NCBI GenBank assembly: GCA_043755815.1
Contig: JAYUSF010000224.1
Span: 8,924-72,923 of the forward strand
Direction: 5' to 3'
Length of the DNA: 64,000 nt
From: Verrucomicrobiota bacterium
GTDB lineage: Bacteria; Verrucomicrobiota; Verrucomicrobiia; Limisphaerales; UBA9464
Below are positions 7,200 to 64,000 of the stretch, one piece after another. The position numbers and the translations under genes are program-made. Numbering within the stretch: position 1 is the stretch's first letter; the number at the start of each line of letters is the position of its first letter. The notes below the pieces were generated by a model. It made no database searches. It saw nothing but the letters and a program-made list of their open reading frames with translations, and was not told the DNA's origin.

Positions 7200-7257
7200 A
7201 GGCAGGACCGCGCCTGCTACCAACTTCCGTTGAATTGAGGCAGAACCCGGCTTCGAA

Positions 7258-7311
7258 CTGTGGGCGGCTTGCCCTGCAAGCCAGGCGGGTTGCGGGGCAA
7301 CCCGCCCACAG
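7258..7311. repeat. palindromic intergenic repeat, copy A (inverted, variant hairpin)
   Basis: CTGTGGGCGG...CCGCCCACAG termini enclose two GC hairpins (GGCTTGC-CCT-GCAAGCC and GGGTTGC-GGG-GCAACCC). The reverse complement shares its first 27 nt with the copies at 34518 and 50946. Confidence 0.85.
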
Positions 7312-7338
7312 TTTTGCAAAAATCACACCTGCTTGGTA

Positions 7339-34486: not shown

Positions 34487-34517
34487 GGCGGCCACGAATT
34501 CGCGGCCGGCCATGAAA

Positions 34518-34572
34518 CTGTGGGCGGGTTGCCCCGCAACCCGCAGCGGTCTCCGGGGGAAACCGCCCACAG
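34518..34572. repeat. palindromic intergenic repeat, copy B
   Basis: CTGTGGGCGGGTTGCCCCGCAACCCGCAGCGGTCTCCGGGGGAAACCGCCCACAG. Near-identical to 50946-51000. Lies between convergent genes. Confidence 0.9.
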
Positions 34573-50818: not shown

Positions 50819-50945
50819 GAGAACCCGGCCGAACCGGCCGGCCGATTGAACCCAAGCGAAGCCGATTTGGCTTGGGCCAGCAAGCTGCCCGGAGCCCCCT
50901 GTTCGCCGGCAACTCATACCATTTCCCGAAAACATCCGGCCTAGA

Positions 50946-51000
50946 CCGTGGGCGGGTTGCCCCGCAACCCGCAGCGGTTTCCGGGGGAAACCGCCCACAG
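50946..51000. repeat. palindromic intergenic repeat, copy C
   Basis: CCGTGGGCGGGTTGCCCCGCAACCCGCAGCGGTTTCCGGGGGAAACCGCCCACAG. Differs from copy B at two positions (T/C at the second base, C/T in the second hairpin). Confidence 0.9.
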
Positions 51001-51029
51001 TTGTTACCGACTGGCTCAGGGAAATGGTA

Positions 51030-58702: not shown

Positions 58703-59080
58703 ATGCATCCGAACTGGAAGATTAGCGAAGATCGGTTGGTGGAACCCCTGTTCGAGCGGGAGCCGGACAATGTGCCGGGGCCTTTCTACGTCATCAAAGA
58801 CCGTTGTATCATCTGTGCGCTGCCGGTCGAAACTGCCCCCGCCAACATCACTTGGAGAATGTGCGATGGTTGTCCCGACCGTTGCCGGGTTGAACGCCAA
58901 CCCGAATCGGCTCCAGAACTGGAGGCGATGATCGAAGTGGTCCGCGGCTCCTGCGTGGACGCCTACCGCTACTGCGGCACTGATGATTACGTGCTCAACA
59001 GACTTACTGAACTGGGGCAGGCCCATTCTTGCGATGCGCTGGTCCATGCCAATCCCGTCTTACGCGATCAAATCAAGTGA
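58703..59080 (+). CDS. small cysteine-rich ferredoxin-like protein (hypothetical)
   Basis: GPFYVIKDRCIICALPVETAP resembles the start of a 4Fe-4S ferredoxin, but the remaining Cys spacing (CDGCPDRC) is atypical. By eye more A/T-rich than its neighbours. Confidence 0.55.
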   Translation: MHPNWKISEDRLVEPLFEREPDNVPGPFYVIKDRCIICALPVETAPANITWRMCDGCPDRCRVERQPESAPELEAMIEVVRGSCVDAYRYCGTDDYVLNRLTELGQAHSCDALVHANPVLRDQIK

Positions 59081-60381
59081 ACGAACTCGAATCCAATCCC
59101 CTCGCCTTCGCGACCTCCACCGTTCAGGAGACCGTGGAAACGTCCTCGCCACCCCAGGCTTCGCTGACCGACCGGGCTTGTCAGGCGTTGATCTTCCGCG
59201 CGTTCGCCCCGATGCGGCGCGGCCGGCTGACCTTGCGCTTGCCCGATGGCTCTCTACGTGAGTTCGGCACGGGCGAAGACGGTCCCGTGGCGGAAGTGCA
59301 TGTGCGCTCGCCACGCTTCTTCCGGCGCTGCGTCTTGGATGGCGACATCGGCTTCGGCGAGTCGTATCAGGCCGGCGAGTGGGATTCGCCCGATCTCTGC
59401 GCGGTCATCGCCTGGTTCTGCGCCAACGTGGAGCAGGCGCCCACGCTCAGCGGCTCGCAGAACCGCGGCTGGTTTGCCGCGCTTGGTGGGCTCGCCAACC
59501 GCCTGCGCCACGCGTTGAACCGCAATTCGCTCGCCGGTTCCAAGGCGAACATCCACGCCCACTACGACCTCGGGAACGCCTTCTACTCCCTCTGGCTCGA
59601 CCCGACGATGACCTACTCGGCCGCGCTGTTTGAGTTCCCGGACCAGAACCTCGCCGCCGCGCAGACAGCCAAATACGACCGCTTGTGCCGCGAGTTGCGG
59701 CTGCAACCGACCGACCATGTCCTCGAGGTCGGTTCCGGCTGGGGCGGTTTCACCGAACACGCCGTGCGGAACTACGGCTGCCGGGTCACCACGGTGACGA
59801 TCAGCGAGGAGCAGCGGAAGTTCGCCGGCGAACGGTTCGCCCGCGCTGGCATCGCGGACCGCGCGGAGGTGAAGTTGCAGGACTACCGGCTGCTCACGGG
59901 GCAGTTCGACAAAATCGTCAGCATCGAAATGCTGGAGGCAGTGGGTGACCAATACCTGGAGACCTACTTCGGCAAGGTGCAGTCGCTGCTCGCGCCACAC
60001 GGCCTGTTCGCCGCGCAGTTCATCACGTGTCCCGATGCGCGCTACGCGGAGTTCCGCCGTGGCGTGGACTGGATCCAAAAGCATGTCTTCCCCGGCTCGC
60101 TGCTGCTCTCGCTGAACCGGGTGAACGAGGCCATCCAGAAGACGGGCCGCCTGTCGCTCCATAACCTTCACGATCTCGGACTCGACTACGCCCAGACGCT
60201 CCGGCTCTGGCGCGGACGGTTCAATGCCCAGCTCGAAGCCGTGCGGGCGCTGGGCTTCGACGAGCGCTTCCTCCGCACTTGGAACTACTACCTCGCCTAC
60301 TGCGAGGCGGCCTTTGCCTGGCGCAACATCAGCGTGATGCAGGCGACGTGGACCGGGCCGAACAACCGTTCGCTGATGTGA
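59077..60381 (+). CDS. cfa: cyclopropane-fatty-acyl-phospholipid synthase family SAM methyltransferase
   Basis: VLEVGSGWGGFTEHAV (SAM motif I), FDKIVSIEMLEAVG, YAQTLRLWR. GTG 59077 overlaps the upstream stop (GTGA). Confidence 0.88.
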   Translation: MNELESNPLAFATSTVQETVETSSPPQASLTDRACQALIFRAFAPMRRGRLTLRLPDGSLREFGTGEDGPVAEVHVRSPRFFRRCVLDGDIGFGESYQAGEWDSPDLCAVIAWFCANVEQAPTLSGSQNRGWFAALGGLANRLRHALNRNSLAGSKANIHAHYDLGNAFYSLWLDPTMTYSAALFEFPDQNLAAAQTAKYDRLCRELRLQPTDHVLEVGSGWGGFTEHAVRNYGCRVTTVTISEEQRKFAGERFARAGIADRAEVKLQDYRLLTGQFDKIVSIEMLEAVGDQYLETYFGKVQSLLAPHGLFAAQFITCPDARYAEFRRGVDWIQKHVFPGSLLLSLNRVNEAIQKTGRLSLHNLHDLGLDYAQTLRLWRGRFNAQLEAVRALGFDERFLRTWNYYLAYCEAAFAWRNISVMQATWTGPNNRSLM

Positions 60382-60385
60382 GCCG

Positions 60386-60721
60386 ATGATCGTCTTCCTG
60401 CGCCTCGCGTTCTCGTTCGTCCTGGTGGCGATGCTGGTGGTAACCTCGTGGGCGAGTTCGGTCGTCGCGCTGTGGAACACTCCGCGCGAAGTGGCCACGC
60501 ACCCGTGGTTCATCGCGACGTTGTTCGACACCTATTTCGCGTTCCTCACGTTCTGGCTGTGGCTCGCGTGGAAGGAACGCACCTGGCCGCGGCGAATCGG
60601 CTGGCTCGTGGCGATCCTGCTGCTCGGCAACATCGCCATGGCGATTTACCTGCTGATCCAGCTCTTCCGCCTGCCGAAGACCGCGTCCTTGGAGGAACTG
60701 CTGACCCGGAGGAACCCATGA
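60386..60721 (+). CDS. DUF1475 family membrane protein
   Basis: 111 aa, 4 TM, with HPWFIATLFDTYFAFLTFWLWLAWKE typical of DUF1475; commonly found in cfa clusters. Confidence 0.8.
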   Translation: MIVFLRLAFSFVLVAMLVVTSWASSVVALWNTPREVATHPWFIATLFDTYFAFLTFWLWLAWKERTWPRRIGWLVAILLLGNIAMAIYLLIQLFRLPKTASLEELLTRRNP

Positions 60722-60797
60722 CCCATCCCCCCGCTCGAACGTTCCTTGGTGGCATCGAAGCGCGAAACGTCGTTCTGCGAGTGGCGTCGTTGCCTTC

Positions 60798-60916
60798 CCC
60801 CTCTCCTGGGGGAGAGGGCCGGGGTGAGGGCGGGCGGGCCTCCATCATCGTTCAATCGTTTTCGCAGAGTGAGTTAACGCCCGCCCTCACCCTAACCCTC
60901 TCCCCCAGGAGAGGGG
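60798..60916. repeat. 119-bp palindromic (MITE/REP-like) element
   Basis: 39-nt arms CCCCTCTCCTGGGGGAGAGGGCCGGGGTGAGGGCGGGCG and CGCCCGCCCTCACCCTAACCCTCTCCCCCAGGAGAGGGG (36 of 39 complementary) around a 41-nt A/T-richer loop. Each arm contains its own sub-palindrome CCCTCTCC-N-GGAGAGGG. Confidence 0.85.
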
Positions 60917-61010
60917 ATTTTCCGATTCGCCACCGGCATGTCACTCGCACACACCGATGCCGGTTCCAGTCTCCGGAGCTTCGCTCCGGTTGCATCCGAA
61001 ACCGCTAGCC

Positions 61011-61853
61011 ATGCCCTTCTCCCTTCTGCTCGTCCTGGCTGCGCTCGCCTTCGTCATCGTTGAGATGACCGCGACCTTCCTGGCCGCCCGGCGACTGCGA
61101 AACTTCGGGATCGTGGACGTCGTCTGGTCCTTTGGCTTCACGCCCCTCGTCTGGCTTTACGTCGGCCTGGCGGCGAGGCGGACCTATGACGCCAAGCTCG
61201 ACGCGCATCCCGAGTGGAACTGGCCCGCCGCCCTGACCATCGCCGGGCTGGTAACCGCGTGGAGCCTGCGCCTCGGCGCGCATCTGCTCGTGCGCGTGAA
61301 GTCGCATCACCCGGTCGAGGACGTGCGTTATGCCAAACTGCGCCAGGAGTGGGGCGCACAAACTGACCGGAAGATGTTCGGCTTCTTCCTGGTCCAAGGC
61401 GCGCTTCAGGTCGTGCTCTCGCTGCCGTGGCTGCTCGTCATCCTCGATACCGAACCGGCGCGCCAGTTTACGCTGAGTCCGCTCGCTTGGTTGGGCACCG
61501 CAATCTGGCTGGCCGGACTGGTGGGCGAAGCGATCGCCGACCGGCAACTCGCGGCGTTCCGGGCGAACCCGGCGAACAAGGGCAAAGTGTGCCAGCTCGG
61601 CCTGTGGAACTATTCGCGGCATCCGAACTACTTCTTCGAATGGCTGGTCTGGGTTGGCTACGCGGTGTTCGCGCTCAGCGCGCCGTGGGGCTGGCTGGGC
61701 CTGCTTGCACCCGCGCTGATGTGGCACTTCCTGGTCAACGTGACCGGCATCCCGATGACCGAGGAGCTGTCCGTGAAATCCAAAGGCGACGCCTACCGCG
61801 ACTACCAGCGCTCGACGAGTGCGTTTGTGCCGTGGTTTAAGCAACAGCTTTGA
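61011..61853 (+). CDS. DUF1295 family membrane protein (steroid 5-alpha-reductase/ICMT-like fold)
   Basis: Polytopic, with C-terminal NYSRHPNYFFEWLVWVGYA. ATG 61011. Confidence 0.85.
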   Translation: MPFSLLLVLAALAFVIVEMTATFLAARRLRNFGIVDVVWSFGFTPLVWLYVGLAARRTYDAKLDAHPEWNWPAALTIAGLVTAWSLRLGAHLLVRVKSHHPVEDVRYAKLRQEWGAQTDRKMFGFFLVQGALQVVLSLPWLLVILDTEPARQFTLSPLAWLGTAIWLAGLVGEAIADRQLAAFRANPANKGKVCQLGLWNYSRHPNYFFEWLVWVGYAVFALSAPWGWLGLLAPALMWHFLVNVTGIPMTEELSVKSKGDAYRDYQRSTSAFVPWFKQQL

Positions 61854-61929
61854 AACCGCGGATGGATATGGCCACACACGATTCGACAAACGCCGCCGTC
61901 TTCAGCGCTGAAAGCGCGACCGAGGACAG

Positions 61930-62102
61930 CCTGGGGTGGAGCGAACGGAGTGAGCGAAGCCCCAGGAGGAACACCCAATCGCCGCAAGGGCTGAAGGCCC
62001 GTGATATCGGCACTCCTTCCGCCCCCGTCTCGCGCTTACAGCGCTCCACCAATTTGCCACTACAACCTGGGGCTTCGCTCGCACGGCTCGCTTCACCCCA
62101 GG
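61930..62102. repeat. 173-bp inverted-repeat (MITE-like) element
   Basis: The 37-nt arms CCTGGGGTGGAGCGAACGGAGTGAGCGAAGCCCCAGG (61930-61966) and CCTGGGGCTTCGCTCGCACGGCTCGCTTCACCCCAGG (62066-62102) are 32 of 37 complementary. Each arm is itself closed by CCTGGGG/CCCCAGG. Confidence 0.8.
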
Positions 62103-62204
62103 CTATCATCTTGCTGGCTTTCAGCCTTCAGCAGGTGCCGTTGATTGTCCCACGCCGGGGCCCGCGTCCGCCCGCGTCTATTCGCTACTAAACCGCTCTT
62201 GCAG

Positions 62205-63365
62205 ATGCTCGACTCCCTTCTCACCCGCGACGTCTTCCCCGACTTCCTGCTCCGCATTGGCATCCGCCGGTTGCTGCGCCAGCGGCTGCGCGAGGAAGAC
62301 CAGGGCGGACTCGAACCCAACCGCGCCCATCTGCTCGCGCTTGTCGAGGAGCTGCGCCGTTCGCCCATCGCCATCGAGACCGCGGCGGCCAACGAGCAGC
62401 ACTACGAGGTGCCCACGCGCTTCTATCAGCTCTGCCTCGGGCCGCGCCTGAAATACTCGTCCGGCTATTACCCGACCGGCCGCGAGACGCTGGCCCAGGC
62501 CGAGGAGATCATGCTGGCACTCACCTGCGAACGCGCGCAGCTCGCCGACGGACAGGAAATCCTCGAGCTCGGCTGCGGCTGGGGTTCGCTCACGCTCTGG
62601 ATGGCCGAGAAGTATCCGCACGCCCGCATCACCGGCGTCTCCAACTCCGCGACCCAGAAGCTGCACATCGACGCCGAATGCGCCCGGCGCGGGCTGAAGA
62701 ACGTCACGATCATCACGTGCGACATGAACCGCTTTGAACCGCCAACTGCCGCTCGTAGCAGCCGAGGTGACGAGGCTCATTCTTTAGCCAGCAGCCAGCA
62801 TCCGACATCCAGCAGTGGAAAGGATCAGAGCCTCCTCACGTCGGCTCCTACGAAGGAACTTTGCGTCGGACGCTTCGACCGCGTGGTCTCGGTCGAGATG
62901 TTCGAGCACATGAAGAACTACGAGCGGCTGCTCGGAAACATCGCCCGCTGGCTCAAGCCCGACGGCCGCCTCTTTGTCCACATCTTCACGCACAAGCACT
63001 TCGCCTATCACTTCGTCGCCCGCGACGAGACCGACTGGATGAGCCGCTATTTCTTCACCGGCGGCATCATGCCCAGCGACGACCTGCTGCTCTACTTCCA
63101 GCGCGATGTCGAGCTGGTGAACCATTGGAACGTCAGCGGCCGTCACTACGGCCAGACGGCCGAACACTGGCTCCAGAACATGGACACCCACGAGCCGGAG
63201 ATCCGCGCCATCTTCCGCGACACCTACGGGGTGGGGAACGAAACGCAGTGGTGGGTTTACTGGCGCGTGTTTTACCTCGCCTGCGCCGAGCTGTGGAACT
63301 TCCGCGGCGGCGACGAGTGGCTGGTGAGCCACTATCTGTTCCGTCCACGACCGCAGGCAAACTGA
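62205..63365 (+). CDS. cyclopropane-fatty-acyl-phospholipid synthase-like SAM methyltransferase carrying an in-frame ~35-40-aa insertion
   Basis: [20 protein letters not shown] (motif I) and [13 protein letters not shown] (post-II). Between them lies the low-complexity insert [44 protein letters not shown]. Confidence 0.85.
62755..62851. repeat. 97-bp palindromic element lying in frame inside the methyltransferase CDS
   Basis: Arms GTAGCAGCCGAGGTGACGAGGCTC (62755-62778) and GAGCCTCCTCACGTCGGCTCCTAC (62828-62851), 21 of 24 complementary, flank an A/T-richer core. Confidence 0.8.
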
Positions 63366-63423
63366 CGGGCGGGGGCGCCGCGGCAGGCTTCCCAAACTCG
63401 CTGCCCGTCGGCAGGCTTCACCC

Positions 63424-64000
63424 ATGAACCGTTCCCGCCTGCTTCCTGCGTCCATCTTCGCCGTCGCCTGCCTCTCCTTCGCCACCCACGCCGAAGTGGG
63501 AAAACCCCAGGAGGTCGCCCCTGGCGTCTGGTTCCATGAGGGCGACATCGCGCGCCGCGGCCATTGCAACAACGGCTGGATCGTCTTCCGCGACCAGGTG
63601 CTCGTCGTGGACGCAAACTTTCCTTCGGGCGCGCAGGACGTGTTGCCCAAGCTCCGCGCGCTCACCGACAAGCCGGTCCGTTTCGTCTTCGACACCCATC
63701 ACCACGGCGACCATGCCTATGGCAACCAGGTCTGGGCCGACGCCGGCGCCACCGTCGTCGCCCATGAGGGCGTGCTCGCCGAAATGAAGCGGTTCGAAAC
63801 CGGCTACTTCGGCGGTGCGCCGGGTTCCTGGGAAGACCTCGCCAAGAACCGGGAAGACGTCGCGAAGTCCAAGCTCCATCCGCCCACCCTCCTGTTCCTG
63901 CGCCAGCTCGTGATCGACGACGGCAACCTGCGCGTCGAGCTCCATCACTTCGGGGTGGCACACACGCGCGGCGACGGTTTCGCCTGGCTGCCGAACGAAC
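63424..64000 (+). CDS. MBL-fold metallo-hydrolase, secreted, 3'-truncated by window edge
   Basis: Not in the ORF track (no stop before the window end). My translation from ATG 63424 gives MNRSRLLPASIFAVACLSFATHAEVGKP...VLVVDANFP...RFVFDTHHHGDHAYGN (HxHxDH motif). Confidence 0.85.
   Translation, partial: MNRSRLLPASIFAVACLSFATHAEVGKPQEVAPGVWFHEGDIARRGHCNNGWIVFRDQVLVVDANFPSGAQDVLPKLRALTDKPVRFVFDTHHHGDHAYGNQVWADAGATVVAHEGVLAEMKRFETGYFGGAPGSWEDLAKNREDVAKSKLHPPTLLFLRQLVIDDGNLRVELHHFGVAHTRGDGFAWLPNE

Follow-up and report, generated by a model that had tools for sequence, protein, structure and literature searches.

Positions 62205 to 63365 of the window (the whole 64-kb stretch of DNA that was analysed) encode on the plus strand a SAM-dependent methyltransferase of 386 aa. 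The protein belongs to the CMAS family, with a PF02353 score of 136 bits (cutoff 27) in a match that an insert splits into two stretches. The gene ends a conserved cluster, DUF1365-(PQQ)-CMAS-DUF1475-DUF1295-MT, whose synteny is kept at orthologous loci, and every listed homolog for which a source is named belongs by its label to Verrucomicrobiota or one of its subgroups. A look-up of the exact protein sequence gave no record. Just upstream of the gene there is a large inverted repeat at 61907-62125, of which no second copy was found among the DNA compared in the analysis.

The methyltransferase and its variable linker

An earlier note on this DNA called the gene cfa-like. The family assignment stands, but in structure the host enzyme is closer to the CNMT-type N-methyltransferases of plants than to Cfa. 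Among solved folds CNMT, PavNMT and TNMT are the nearest, at E = 1e-37 with TM 0.82/0.93 and 27-36% identity, compared with E = 1e-20, TM 0.57 and 22-24% identity for CFA synthases. The host shares the CMAS-family class I fold with the plant coclaurine, pavine and tetrahydroprotoberberine N-methyltransferases and with the bacterial CFA synthases, and its insert of 33-40 aa is absent from all of these solved relatives. The SAM motif and the EMFEH motif are invariant in the aligned orthologs.

The insert is located in a linker (62718..62891, plus strand) that was delimited by alignment, by a loop census of 111 orthologs and by model secondary structure. It runs from CDMN, at the end of one beta-strand, to FDRVVS in the next strand, the one that carries E231..E234-H235. 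The linker has 48 aa here. The paralog at 59077-60381 has only a few residues at the equivalent place, the shortest orthologs have 8 aa (RFDIEAGA), and close orthologs that are free of the insert have 16-24 aa; the extra residues claimed by comparison with the paralog are thus real. Across the 111 orthologs the length is hypervariable, from 7 to 57 aa. At positional orthologs the linker is either empty (8-24 aa) or filled by a repeat, and at least four, probably five, repeat families are represented. Several unrelated spacers are found at ortholog linkers within the family of the window's own element, and the remaining long linkers have matches in different dispersed repeat families. No ortholog compared has a homologous loop of equal length that is not palindromic, so the alignment that the earlier note proposed as a check came out in its favor, with the insert either absent or replaced by other palindromes at the spot. 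A neighbor-joining tree of the 111 orthologs interleaves insert-bearing and insert-free members, with branches too short for their order to be trusted. Comparison with the insert-free loci L124 and L126 gave neither exact insertion boundaries nor a target duplication, because the linker residues on either side also vary too much. L124 has a possible 9-nt remnant of a REP end (GCCGCAGAC), too short to count.

The predicted model of the host protein has a mean pLDDT of 82, and its sole long low-confidence coil is at residues 186-215, with pLDDT below 50 and no secondary structure. This coil sits between two beta-strands and coincides with the 33 residues encoded by the element, codons 184-216 (62754..62852, plus strand), at a site 8 residues upstream of the invariant E..EH motif (E231..E234-H235). 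The insert is hence predicted to be a disordered loop, with neither the Rossmann-like core nor the E..EH motif disrupted. A surface loop entered without a break in the frame had been suggested; the frame is intact and the structure model agrees with a loop, which would probably be exposed at the protein surface. Peptide segments encoded by Rickettsia palindromic elements (RPEs) are likewise reported to lie in surface loops. The insert-bearing protein is presumably active, and the insert itself may well be selectively neutral. Metatranscriptome contigs of a close ortholog retain an 85-nt insert at the same site in RNA, and one of these contigs ends in the REP arm of that ortholog's copy.

The palindrome as a dimer of GTAG-headed REP units

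Inverted-repeat analysis places a 97-bp palindrome at 62755-62851, inside the methyltransferase gene. Its 24-nt arms, 62755-62778 on the plus strand and 62828-62851 on the minus strand, pair at 21 of 24 positions and differ at 3. A longer version of the arms has 26 nt (62753-62778 and 62828-62853), with 23 of 26 paired (88% complementarity) around a spacer of 49 nt (62779..62827). The spacer has 51% GC, the arms have 67%, and the 64-kb window as a whole has 64.5%. The dimensions and the A/T-richer core given in the earlier note are therefore accurate. The fold of a 116-nt stretch containing the palindrome beats 200 of 200 shuffles (z = -3.4 for DNA, -4.9 for RNA). Inverted repeats with at least 21 of 24 positions paired within 100 nt occur 4 times in the real window and not at all in 25 of 25 first-order Markov simulations of it. 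The palindromy is far above chance level and highly significant.

The palindrome is a REPIN, a tail-to-tail dimer of a 24-nt REP with a GTAG head and the consensus GTAGCAGCCGACGTGAGGAGGCTC. The left unit (62753..62778, plus strand) has its GTAG head at 62755-62758, and its sequence, GTAGCAGCCGAGGTGACGAGGCTC, is identical to a family variant, 'B'. The right unit (62828..62853) is inverted, with its GTAG head at 62851-62848 of the minus strand, and corresponds to variant 'A' bearing a G at position 5, GTAGGAGCCGACGTGAGGAGGCTC. All three positions at which the arms disagree are variant positions of the family. The arm pattern GTAGSAGCCGASGTGASGAGGCTC matches at least 120 stretches elsewhere, most of them labelled Verrucomicrobiota; labels on the matching contigs include Limisphaerales, Pedosphaera, 'subdivision 3' and others. 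Nine of these stretches, spread over eight contigs, come from a single MAG. The fetched loci contain 87 inverted pairs within 200 nt, with spacers mostly of 14-50 nt that differ from copy to copy. Neither spacer nor flank sequences are conserved across the family, and the unit also occurs singly. No target-site duplication or direct repeat flanks the window copy, and none is seen by eye around the listed copies. An Rfam search of 60000-64000 with E up to 1 has no match at the element. Hence the proposal of a small mobile or REP-like element is supported, in that the arms belong to a widely dispersed family with several copies in each of the related genomes.

Within the REP unit a stem AGCC/GGCT is predicted. 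Positions 12 and 17 covary, with C..G in 123 cases, G..C in 23, G..G in 2 and C..C in 2 (Fisher p = 1e-22), and compensatory types are also seen at pairs 8-21 and 6-23. Because the fold energy of a lone REP is weak (-2 to -5 kcal/mol) and no better than that of shuffles, it is the covariation by itself that argues for a hairpin in the single unit, and this signal could partly reflect subfamily descent.

RAYT-like genes flanked by copies of the same REPs are found at 4 loci (L009, L074, L131 and L136). The L009 protein matches the NCBIfam REP_Tyr_transpos model at E = 7e-12, with 45 bits, which is under the curated cutoff of 80, and Pfam gives no match to it. Its best PDB match is the TnpA-REP structure 4ER8 (E = 8.5e-5), in an alignment where the HUH and Tyr motifs fall into register. 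It has 1362 homologs, many of them named 'REP element-mobilizing transposase RayT' by JGI. The 64-kb window contains the one copy of the element and no RAYT gene, so that we infer multiple copies and a RAYT in the source genome from its relatives and from metagenome depth. In source-like metagenomes, which sample a mixed community, the arms have a depth of 245-2350 against about 6-13 over the gene (20-200 times), and contigs there link the two arms via other spacers as well.

REPs and REPINs are characteristically extragenic, but the window copy and at least 28 of 85 sampled copies are intragenic; intragenic GTAG REPs are documented exceptions (PMC3733652). These 28 copies, about a third of the sample, lie in frame within Pfam-supported genes, for example those of UvrA, UvrB, MutS, DnaE and ClpB; repair and replication genes seem to be in excess among the hosts. 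The same peptide signatures (SSRxxEA...SLLTSAxT) are encoded by copies in other genes, and two of the three reading frames are open through the REP unit. A full-text literature search for the unit or its peptides found no papers.

Origin of the insert

The reading we favor, and consider very probable, is that the palindrome is a REPIN of a Verrucomicrobiota-wide family, mobilized by a RAYT, that landed in frame in the methyltransferase linker and was tolerated there as a disordered loop. REPINs are non-autonomous. Their mobilization, thought to take place in trans and in the form of a single-stranded hairpin, is ascribed to a RAYT, which is a HUH/Y1 tyrosine transposase with a single domain. 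That a RAYT transposed this element is suggested by related genomes, in which RAYT genes have these REPs at their flanks. A single copy, or a later replacement by conversion from other copies, would have come to lie between two beta-strands of the CNMT-like CMAS-family enzyme. We propose three reasons for the survival of the insert: the unit is open in two of its three frames, the total added length does not shift the reading frame, and the 33 residues are disordered with the core intact.

One alternative is an assembly artefact, in which the true gene has a short linker and the repeat led to a mis-join or to a REPIN collapsed into the gene. Logan contigs from two source-like sediment runs (X1 and X2) cover 62611-62854 with zero differences, and a contig from an unrelated freshwater study crosses both junctions (62687-62903) with 11 differences. 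In X1 and X2, 62860-62871 is unbridged by any contig at 97% identity or above. The contigs of these runs break at the right arm, ending at 62858 and resuming at 62874, and for this reason the right junction is backed only by 7 unique bases there and by the contig of the other study. One 333-nt contig is identical over 62874-63072 and upstream runs into an insert-free '...DMNDFEAPGE|FDR'. This is likelier to be a graph chimera with a distant ortholog, because its upstream part is unlike all 111 orthologs in the census. The element is flanked in frame by both halves of one conserved gene, and REP inserts are present at the same spot in many independently assembled orthologs, making an artefact very unlikely.

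Another alternative is that the insert is a native, fast-evolving linker whose palindromy is local to the loop of this gene, as the hypervariable linker lengths and the single copy in the window might lead one to think. Against this, both arms are equal, base for base, to variants of the 24-nt unit in the other stretches, and these are in intergenic DNA and unrelated genes and are not copies of the methyltransferase gene; the other long linkers, too, match dispersed repeats. We regard a native origin as scarcely credible. A classical MITE, derived by deletion from a DDE-transposase insertion sequence and bounded by terminal inverted repeats, would also be small and dispersed, with inverted termini and no coding capacity of its own. 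The missing target-site duplications do not suit a MITE, nor do arms that are each a GTAG-headed unit also found alone, nor spacers that are unrelated between copies, unlike MITE interiors. Furthermore, no protein gene other than that of the RAYT-like HUH/Y1 enzyme, at the 4 loci above, was found between such arms, and a MITE is extremely improbable.

A different kind of alternative accepts the REPIN but supposes that it is kept for a function, either as an mRNA hairpin affecting stability or translation or as a flexible peptide lid by the SAM/substrate site through which the enzyme is tuned, with the linker actively targeted. The nearness of the site to the E..EH motif would suit such a role, as would the presence of the ortholog's insert in RNA and the number of repeat families and unrelated spacers found in this linker across orthologs. 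The arm variants of the window copy also run in the opposite order to those of its 90%-identical orthologs, and REPs in repair genes have been speculated to modify protein activity (PMC3733652). However, many close orthologs work with a linker of 8-24 aa, the insert sequence beyond the REP arms is not conserved and is decaying in some lineages (e.g. P0009-P0011), dozens of unrelated proteins carry the same family, and there is no Rfam family for the insert. Exaptation is therefore, in our judgement, unlikely.

A related idea, which is doubtful, is that the linker is a true integration hotspot and not just permissive, drawing in successive REP families and successive copies of one family in either orientation. 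A hairpin or REP already resident there is perhaps the target. More widely, REPINs of these Verrucomicrobiota lineages may regularly supply proteins, core enzymes of repair and replication among them, with new disordered loops, to an extent that matches the RPEs of Rickettsia.

Relation to known elements

The closest known systems are the GTAG REPs and REPINs associated with RAYT (Nunvar 2010; Bertels & Rainey 2011, PMC3116915; PMC3733652). The element shares with them a 24-nt unit headed by GTAG at its 5' end and with a stem inside it, the tail-to-tail inverted dimers with variable spacers, the many dispersed copies (here in related genomes), the lack of a target duplication, and the RAYT genes flanked by units ('REPtrons'). 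Di Nocera et al. 2013 (PMC3733652) had described GTAG REPs, tail-to-tail dimers, variable spacers, REP-flanked RAYT genes, and intragenic copies in Opitutus terrae. The O. terrae REPs (GTAG-17 to GTAG-20) likewise have in-frame intragenic copies, many of them in uvrA, uvrB and dnaE. The unit sequence is different here, peptides such as SSRREEA/SLLTSAAT are absent from the O. terrae table of that paper, and the hosts are labelled Limisphaerales, Pedosphaera and similar, not Opitutus. A high intragenic share, at least 28 of the 85 dimers sampled, also sets the family apart. Thus the in-frame REP event is real, but it is of a kind already described, Verrucomicrobia included, and its value is incremental because the basic phenomenon has been published.

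The RPEs (RPE-1 to RPE-8; Ogata et al. 2000, cited in PMC3733652), which the earlier note offered as precedent, are also in-frame palindromes that add a peptide to functional protein genes. The analogy holds for the added loop and fails for the identity of the element, which is a RAYT-associated dimer of GTAG-type REPs. RPE-4 and RPE-6 carry a CGTC tag in the account of PMC3733652 and the element here has a GTAG head; set against that description, the two have no sequence relation. The RPE host is a reduced obligate intracellular alphaproteobacterium, and the element described here has a candidate transposase and resides in environmental Verrucomicrobiota, from metagenomes of sediment and freshwater. 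The bacterial MITEs (Correia/NEMIS, ERIC, Nezha, RUP) are small non-autonomous palindromic repeats as well, with some copies transcribed or fused to ORFs, but their terminal inverted repeats derive from an IS, their interiors are conserved and they have target-site duplications, none of which applies to this element.

REP/RAYT systems are usually discussed as extragenic and in Proteobacteria, and here one often gets into coding DNA in another phylum. What looks like a split, low-complexity methyltransferase is, on the REPIN reading, a normal enzyme with a selfish passenger. The same passenger is marked in many Verrucomicrobiota proteins by the peptide signatures SSRREEA...SLLTSAAT and VAADVRRL...EPPHVGSY, which can be masked for annotation as well as for searches by homology or structure. 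The modestly new part is the reuse of one loop by so many repeat families, since PMC3733652 reports only two different REPs at about the same site, in recB of Xanthomonas. The orthologs form a natural series that includes empty linkers, linkers filled by one or another of several repeat families, copies in decay and possible footprints of excision, and it could be used to follow the insertion, conversion and loss of REPINs and the tolerance of proteins for inserted loops.

A GTAG-headed REP dimer in a methyltransferase gene

The palindrome at 62755-62851 lies in frame within the methyltransferase ORF 62205-63365 (+), which stays open through it, as the earlier note had stated; the product matches Pfam CMAS (PF02353) as two stretches with the insert between them. 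The left arm, 24 nt at 62755-62778 on the plus strand, is GTAGCAGCCGAGGTGACGAGGCTC, and the right arm, 24 nt at 62828-62851 read on the minus strand, is GTAGGAGCCGACGTGAGGAGGCTC. They differ at three positions, which confirms the 21 of 24 complementary positions already counted, and ungapped pairing reaches 26 nt (62753-62778 with 62828-62853, 88%) around a 49-nt spacer. The core had been called A/T-richer, and it is, with 51% GC in the spacer against 67% in the arms. Folded as DNA (z = −3.4) or as RNA (z = −4.9), the stretch outdoes all 200 of its dinucleotide shuffles. Inverted repeats of this quality, no more than 100 nt apart, number four in the real window, and first-order Markov simulation of the whole window produced none in 25 runs.

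A scan for further copies, taking one genome per GTDB species and an arm pattern with S at the three variable positions, found a dispersed family of at least 120 matching stretches. Among the matches listed, most are in contigs labelled Verrucomicrobiota or its subgroups (Limisphaerales, Pedosphaera, "subdivision 3"), with several stretches per related genome and, in one metagenome-assembled genome, nine stretches on eight contigs. Every arm of this REP begins with GTAG, and single units also occur, but the listed loci contain 87 inverted pairs within 200 nt, or REPINs, with nearly invariant arms around spacers that are mostly 14-50 nt, share no sequence, and often consist of short tandem motifs. 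Across these loci the flanks have nothing in common and no target duplication was seen, as the chemistry of RAYT/HUH transposases predicts. Identity as a MITE was rejected on the absent target duplication and the unconserved interior.

The unit has 2 main variants, ...CCGACGTGAGGAGG... and ...CCGAGGTGACGAGG..., and the three mismatches between the window arms are exactly the variant positions of the family. The left arm matches variant B exactly, and the right arm likewise matches the form of variant A that has G at position 5. Of 150 arms retrieved by a pattern permitting all four combinations at positions 12 and 17, 123 have C..G, 23 have G..C, and 4 have an unpaired combination (Fisher p = 1 × 10−22); compensatory types are present for pairs 8-21 and 6-23 too. 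This fits a hairpin within each unit, in which the stem AGCC/GGCT is followed by a tandem G-A/A-G and by a C-G that closes a GTGA loop. For one REP by itself the nearest-neighbour energy is weak and no better than that of shuffles, and therefore the inner pair rests on the covariation, which descent within subfamilies could inflate.

A GTAG-tagged REP superfamily was defined by Di Nocera, De Gregorio, and Rocco (2013, PMC3733652), who describe tail-to-tail dimers with variable spacers, and REPs flanking RAYT genes, and who report it from the PVC superphylum, with Opitutus terrae among the hosts. The units of O. terrae translate to different peptides (VGPALAAG, VAGVADPG, GTGVPPV), and a full-text literature search did not find the window unit or its peptides. 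Hence the element adds a new member to a known kind; the finding is real, and the interpretation first given, a small mobile or REP-like element, is correct in that it is a GTAG REP dimer of a dispersed and presumably mobile family. The precedent cited for it, the Rickettsia palindromic elements, holds for the similar effect on proteins but not for identity, since the tag here is GTAG and not CGTC, the host phylum differs, and there is a transposase candidate. The novelty is modest; the points worth pursuing are that many repeat families have used a single linker and that so large a share of the copies is intragenic.

A candidate transposase and the intragenic habit

Between REP copies at locus L009 there is a 208-aa ORF that scores E = 7 × 10−12 against the NCBIfam "REP-associated tyrosine transposase", at 45 bits, below the curated 80, and has no Pfam match. 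Among PDB entries it matches E. coli TnpA-REP best (4ER8, E = 8.5 × 10−5), and the alignment pairs both the HUH motif (PDHIHLV) and the tyrosine motif (YVLMNPVKDGL). Its homologs at E up to 10−5 number 1362, many named "REP element-mobilizing transposase RayT" by JGI; few have NCBI names, labelled Verrucomicrobiota. At L074, L131, and L136, RAYT homologs are bounded by inverted units of the window element's family, at distances of 14-81 nt wherever the sequence includes both ends of the gene. A RAYT-like gene between REP units, as at these three loci and L009, is the "REPtron" arrangement. No RAYT was found in the 64-kb window. From the literature on REPINs and on IS200/IS605-type HUH enzymes, the element would have been mobilized by a RAYT. 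The comparative evidence gives good support to a RAYT-mobilized REPIN that the protein accommodates as a disordered loop, with mobility and protein function as presumed steps.

In the scanned loci, 33 of 85 dimers have 240 nt or more of open frame to either side, and 28 of those 33 ORFs have Pfam families at E up to 10−5, usually flanking or spanning the insert. The hosts include UvrA (three loci), UvrB, MutS, DnaE, AddB, the exonuclease VII large subunit (XseA), and an HrpB-like helicase in DNA repair and replication; ClpB, a Glu/Gln-tRNA synthetase domain protein, and class-III aminotransferases among other housekeeping proteins; AcrB-type pumps and a P-type ATPase in transport; and a C5 DNA methyltransferase. 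In the forward direction, two of the three frames pass through the unit without a stop (VAADVRRL or xSSRREEA), the G|TAG frame being the only closed one, and its reverse complement is open in three (EPPHVGCY, ASSRRLL, SLLTSAAT), hence the recurring peptide signatures. Judged from these sequences, intragenic copies are a habit of the family. In PMC3733652, O. terrae has the most in-frame intragenic REPs, many of which lie within uvrA, uvrB, dnaE, and recBCD, and about the same recB site holds two different REPs in two Xanthomonas species. The repair and replication hosts here (L006, L015, L041, L054, L080, L085, L098, L105, L120) are prominent by plain count, which echoes that enrichment.

One linker, several repeat families

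The listed methyltransferase homologs, all labelled Verrucomicrobiota or its subgroups where a source is named, range from 342 to 391 aa, with the entire length variation in one linker, bounded by ...IITCDMN and FDRVVS.... The gene order is DUF1365, sometimes a PQQ-repeat protein, CMAS, DUF1475, DUF1295, and the methyltransferase last; given this conserved synteny, they are positional orthologs. An AlphaFold model from the alignment (pLDDT 82, pTM 0.83) has a single long low-confidence stretch, residues 186-215, predicted as coil between strands 167-171 and 224-230. The element encodes residues 184-216, so the predicted coil coincides with the insert, and the strand downstream carries E231, E234, and H235, invariant across the aligned orthologs. 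The label "cfa-like" stands at the Pfam level only, since among solved structures the plant coclaurine, pavine, and tetrahydroprotoberberine N-methyltransferases come closest (TM 0.82/0.93, 27-36% identity), and CFA synthases are much more distant (TM 0.57). The cluster at L129 additionally holds a fatty-acid desaturase and an amine oxidase.

Aligned orthologs have this linker either short or filled by REPs or other repeats. The window element's family occupies it in L121 (P0001, 90% identical), as a copy of subfamily GTAGCCGCC...GGCGG, its arm variants in reverse order relative to the window copy and its 23-nt spacer unrelated, in L125 (P0020), and in L128 (P0037, 927-1127), where one left and two right units, one degenerate and one perfect, with outer arms 26/26, add 57 aa, so grouped units are also carried in frame. 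A different GTAG unit, GTAGGACGGGCGGCCCGCC, is found in L123 (P0005), inverted GTCCGTGG-type heptamer repeats in L127 (P0024), and inverted GGTTGAAG octamer repeats in L129 (P0038). These other three arm types are dispersed among the unrelated loci compared: with the query loci counted, they match 16, 8, and 25 times, in 13, 4, and 6 loci. A census of 111 orthologs adds a fifth linker type, ...ECWSD...LQHS..., judged from peptide only, and at least six unrelated spacers for the window element's family. Four repeat families at least, and probably five, have used the linker, which is either a permissive site or a targeted one. Because its contents differ among orthologs, the window copy is a separate insertion from those of its closest relatives, or a conversion product of other copies.

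Linkers in L124, L126, and L130 are short and without a palindrome. The P0088 linker EPPSTGE matches the flanks of the P0028-type insert, P0097 retains a spacer-like LETQNSKPE and no arms, P0012 (L126:1975-2070) has heptamer motifs resembling some REPIN spacers, and P0014 (L124:4728-4805) has GCCGCAGAC, similar to a REP end. These look like footprints of lost elements, although the matches are too short to prove it.

Reads, transcripts, and neighboring palindromes

Two sediment-metagenome runs, X1 and X2, contain 89% of the gene's sampled words, and contigs of both span 62611-62854, the left junction and the entire element, with zero differences. Short contigs extend 7 bases beyond the right arm into the unique flank, and at an identity of 97% or above neither run has a contig over 62860-62871. 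Both junctions are crossed, with 11 differences, by a 217-nt contig of an unrelated freshwater study. A 333-nt contig in X1 and X2 is identical to 62874-63072, and upstream of that its linker lacks the insert and reads ...GACATGAACGACTTCGAGGCGCCGGGCGAA (DMNDFEAPGE). Either an allele free of the insert co-occurs, or the assembly graph has joined this contig to a distant ortholog as a chimera. We take the window arrangement as real because both flanks are halves of one conserved gene and independent ortholog assemblies have inserts at the same place. In the source-like runs the arms have a depth of 245-2350 against about 6-13 for the gene, and contigs also connect the two arms via quite different spacers, the signature of many further copies in the community.

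Lake and freshwater metatranscriptome contigs (runs X22, X24, X26; window 62559-62921) belong to a close ortholog, about 93% identical, with both linker sides, and so concern its copy and not the window's own. There, 85 nt replaces the window's 118 nt, the size of the P0001-type copy, and one contig end reads the P0001-type right arm, CGCCTCGTTACCTCGGCGGTTACGGATCAG. The ortholog's gene appears to be expressed in lakes with the insert kept in the transcript, with DNA carry-over possible in such libraries.

Just upstream of the methyltransferase start there is a large inverted repeat (61907-61966 and 62066-62125; 60-nt arms, 80% complementary, 99 nt apart) whose arms reach 35.6 and 25.5 bits with the Rfam Acido-Lenti-1 RNA motif, a little below the gathering score of 37; no further copy was found in roughly 1 Mb of related DNA. 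A palindrome in the gap from DUF1475 to DUF1295 (60798-60836 and 60878-60916; 39-nt arms, 92% complementary, CCCCTCTCCTGGGGGAGAGGG...) belongs to a repeat family found in 13 of the compared sequences. Its Rfam matches were dismissed as spurious miRNA-hairpin hits. An in-frame peptide (..LSPSGGER..) adjoining the REPIN in the uvrB of L006 resembles its translation. A third palindromic repeat family, AACTGTGGGCGGGTTGCCCCGCAACCCGC..., has three window copies, at 7256-7313, 34516-34572, and 50945-51002.
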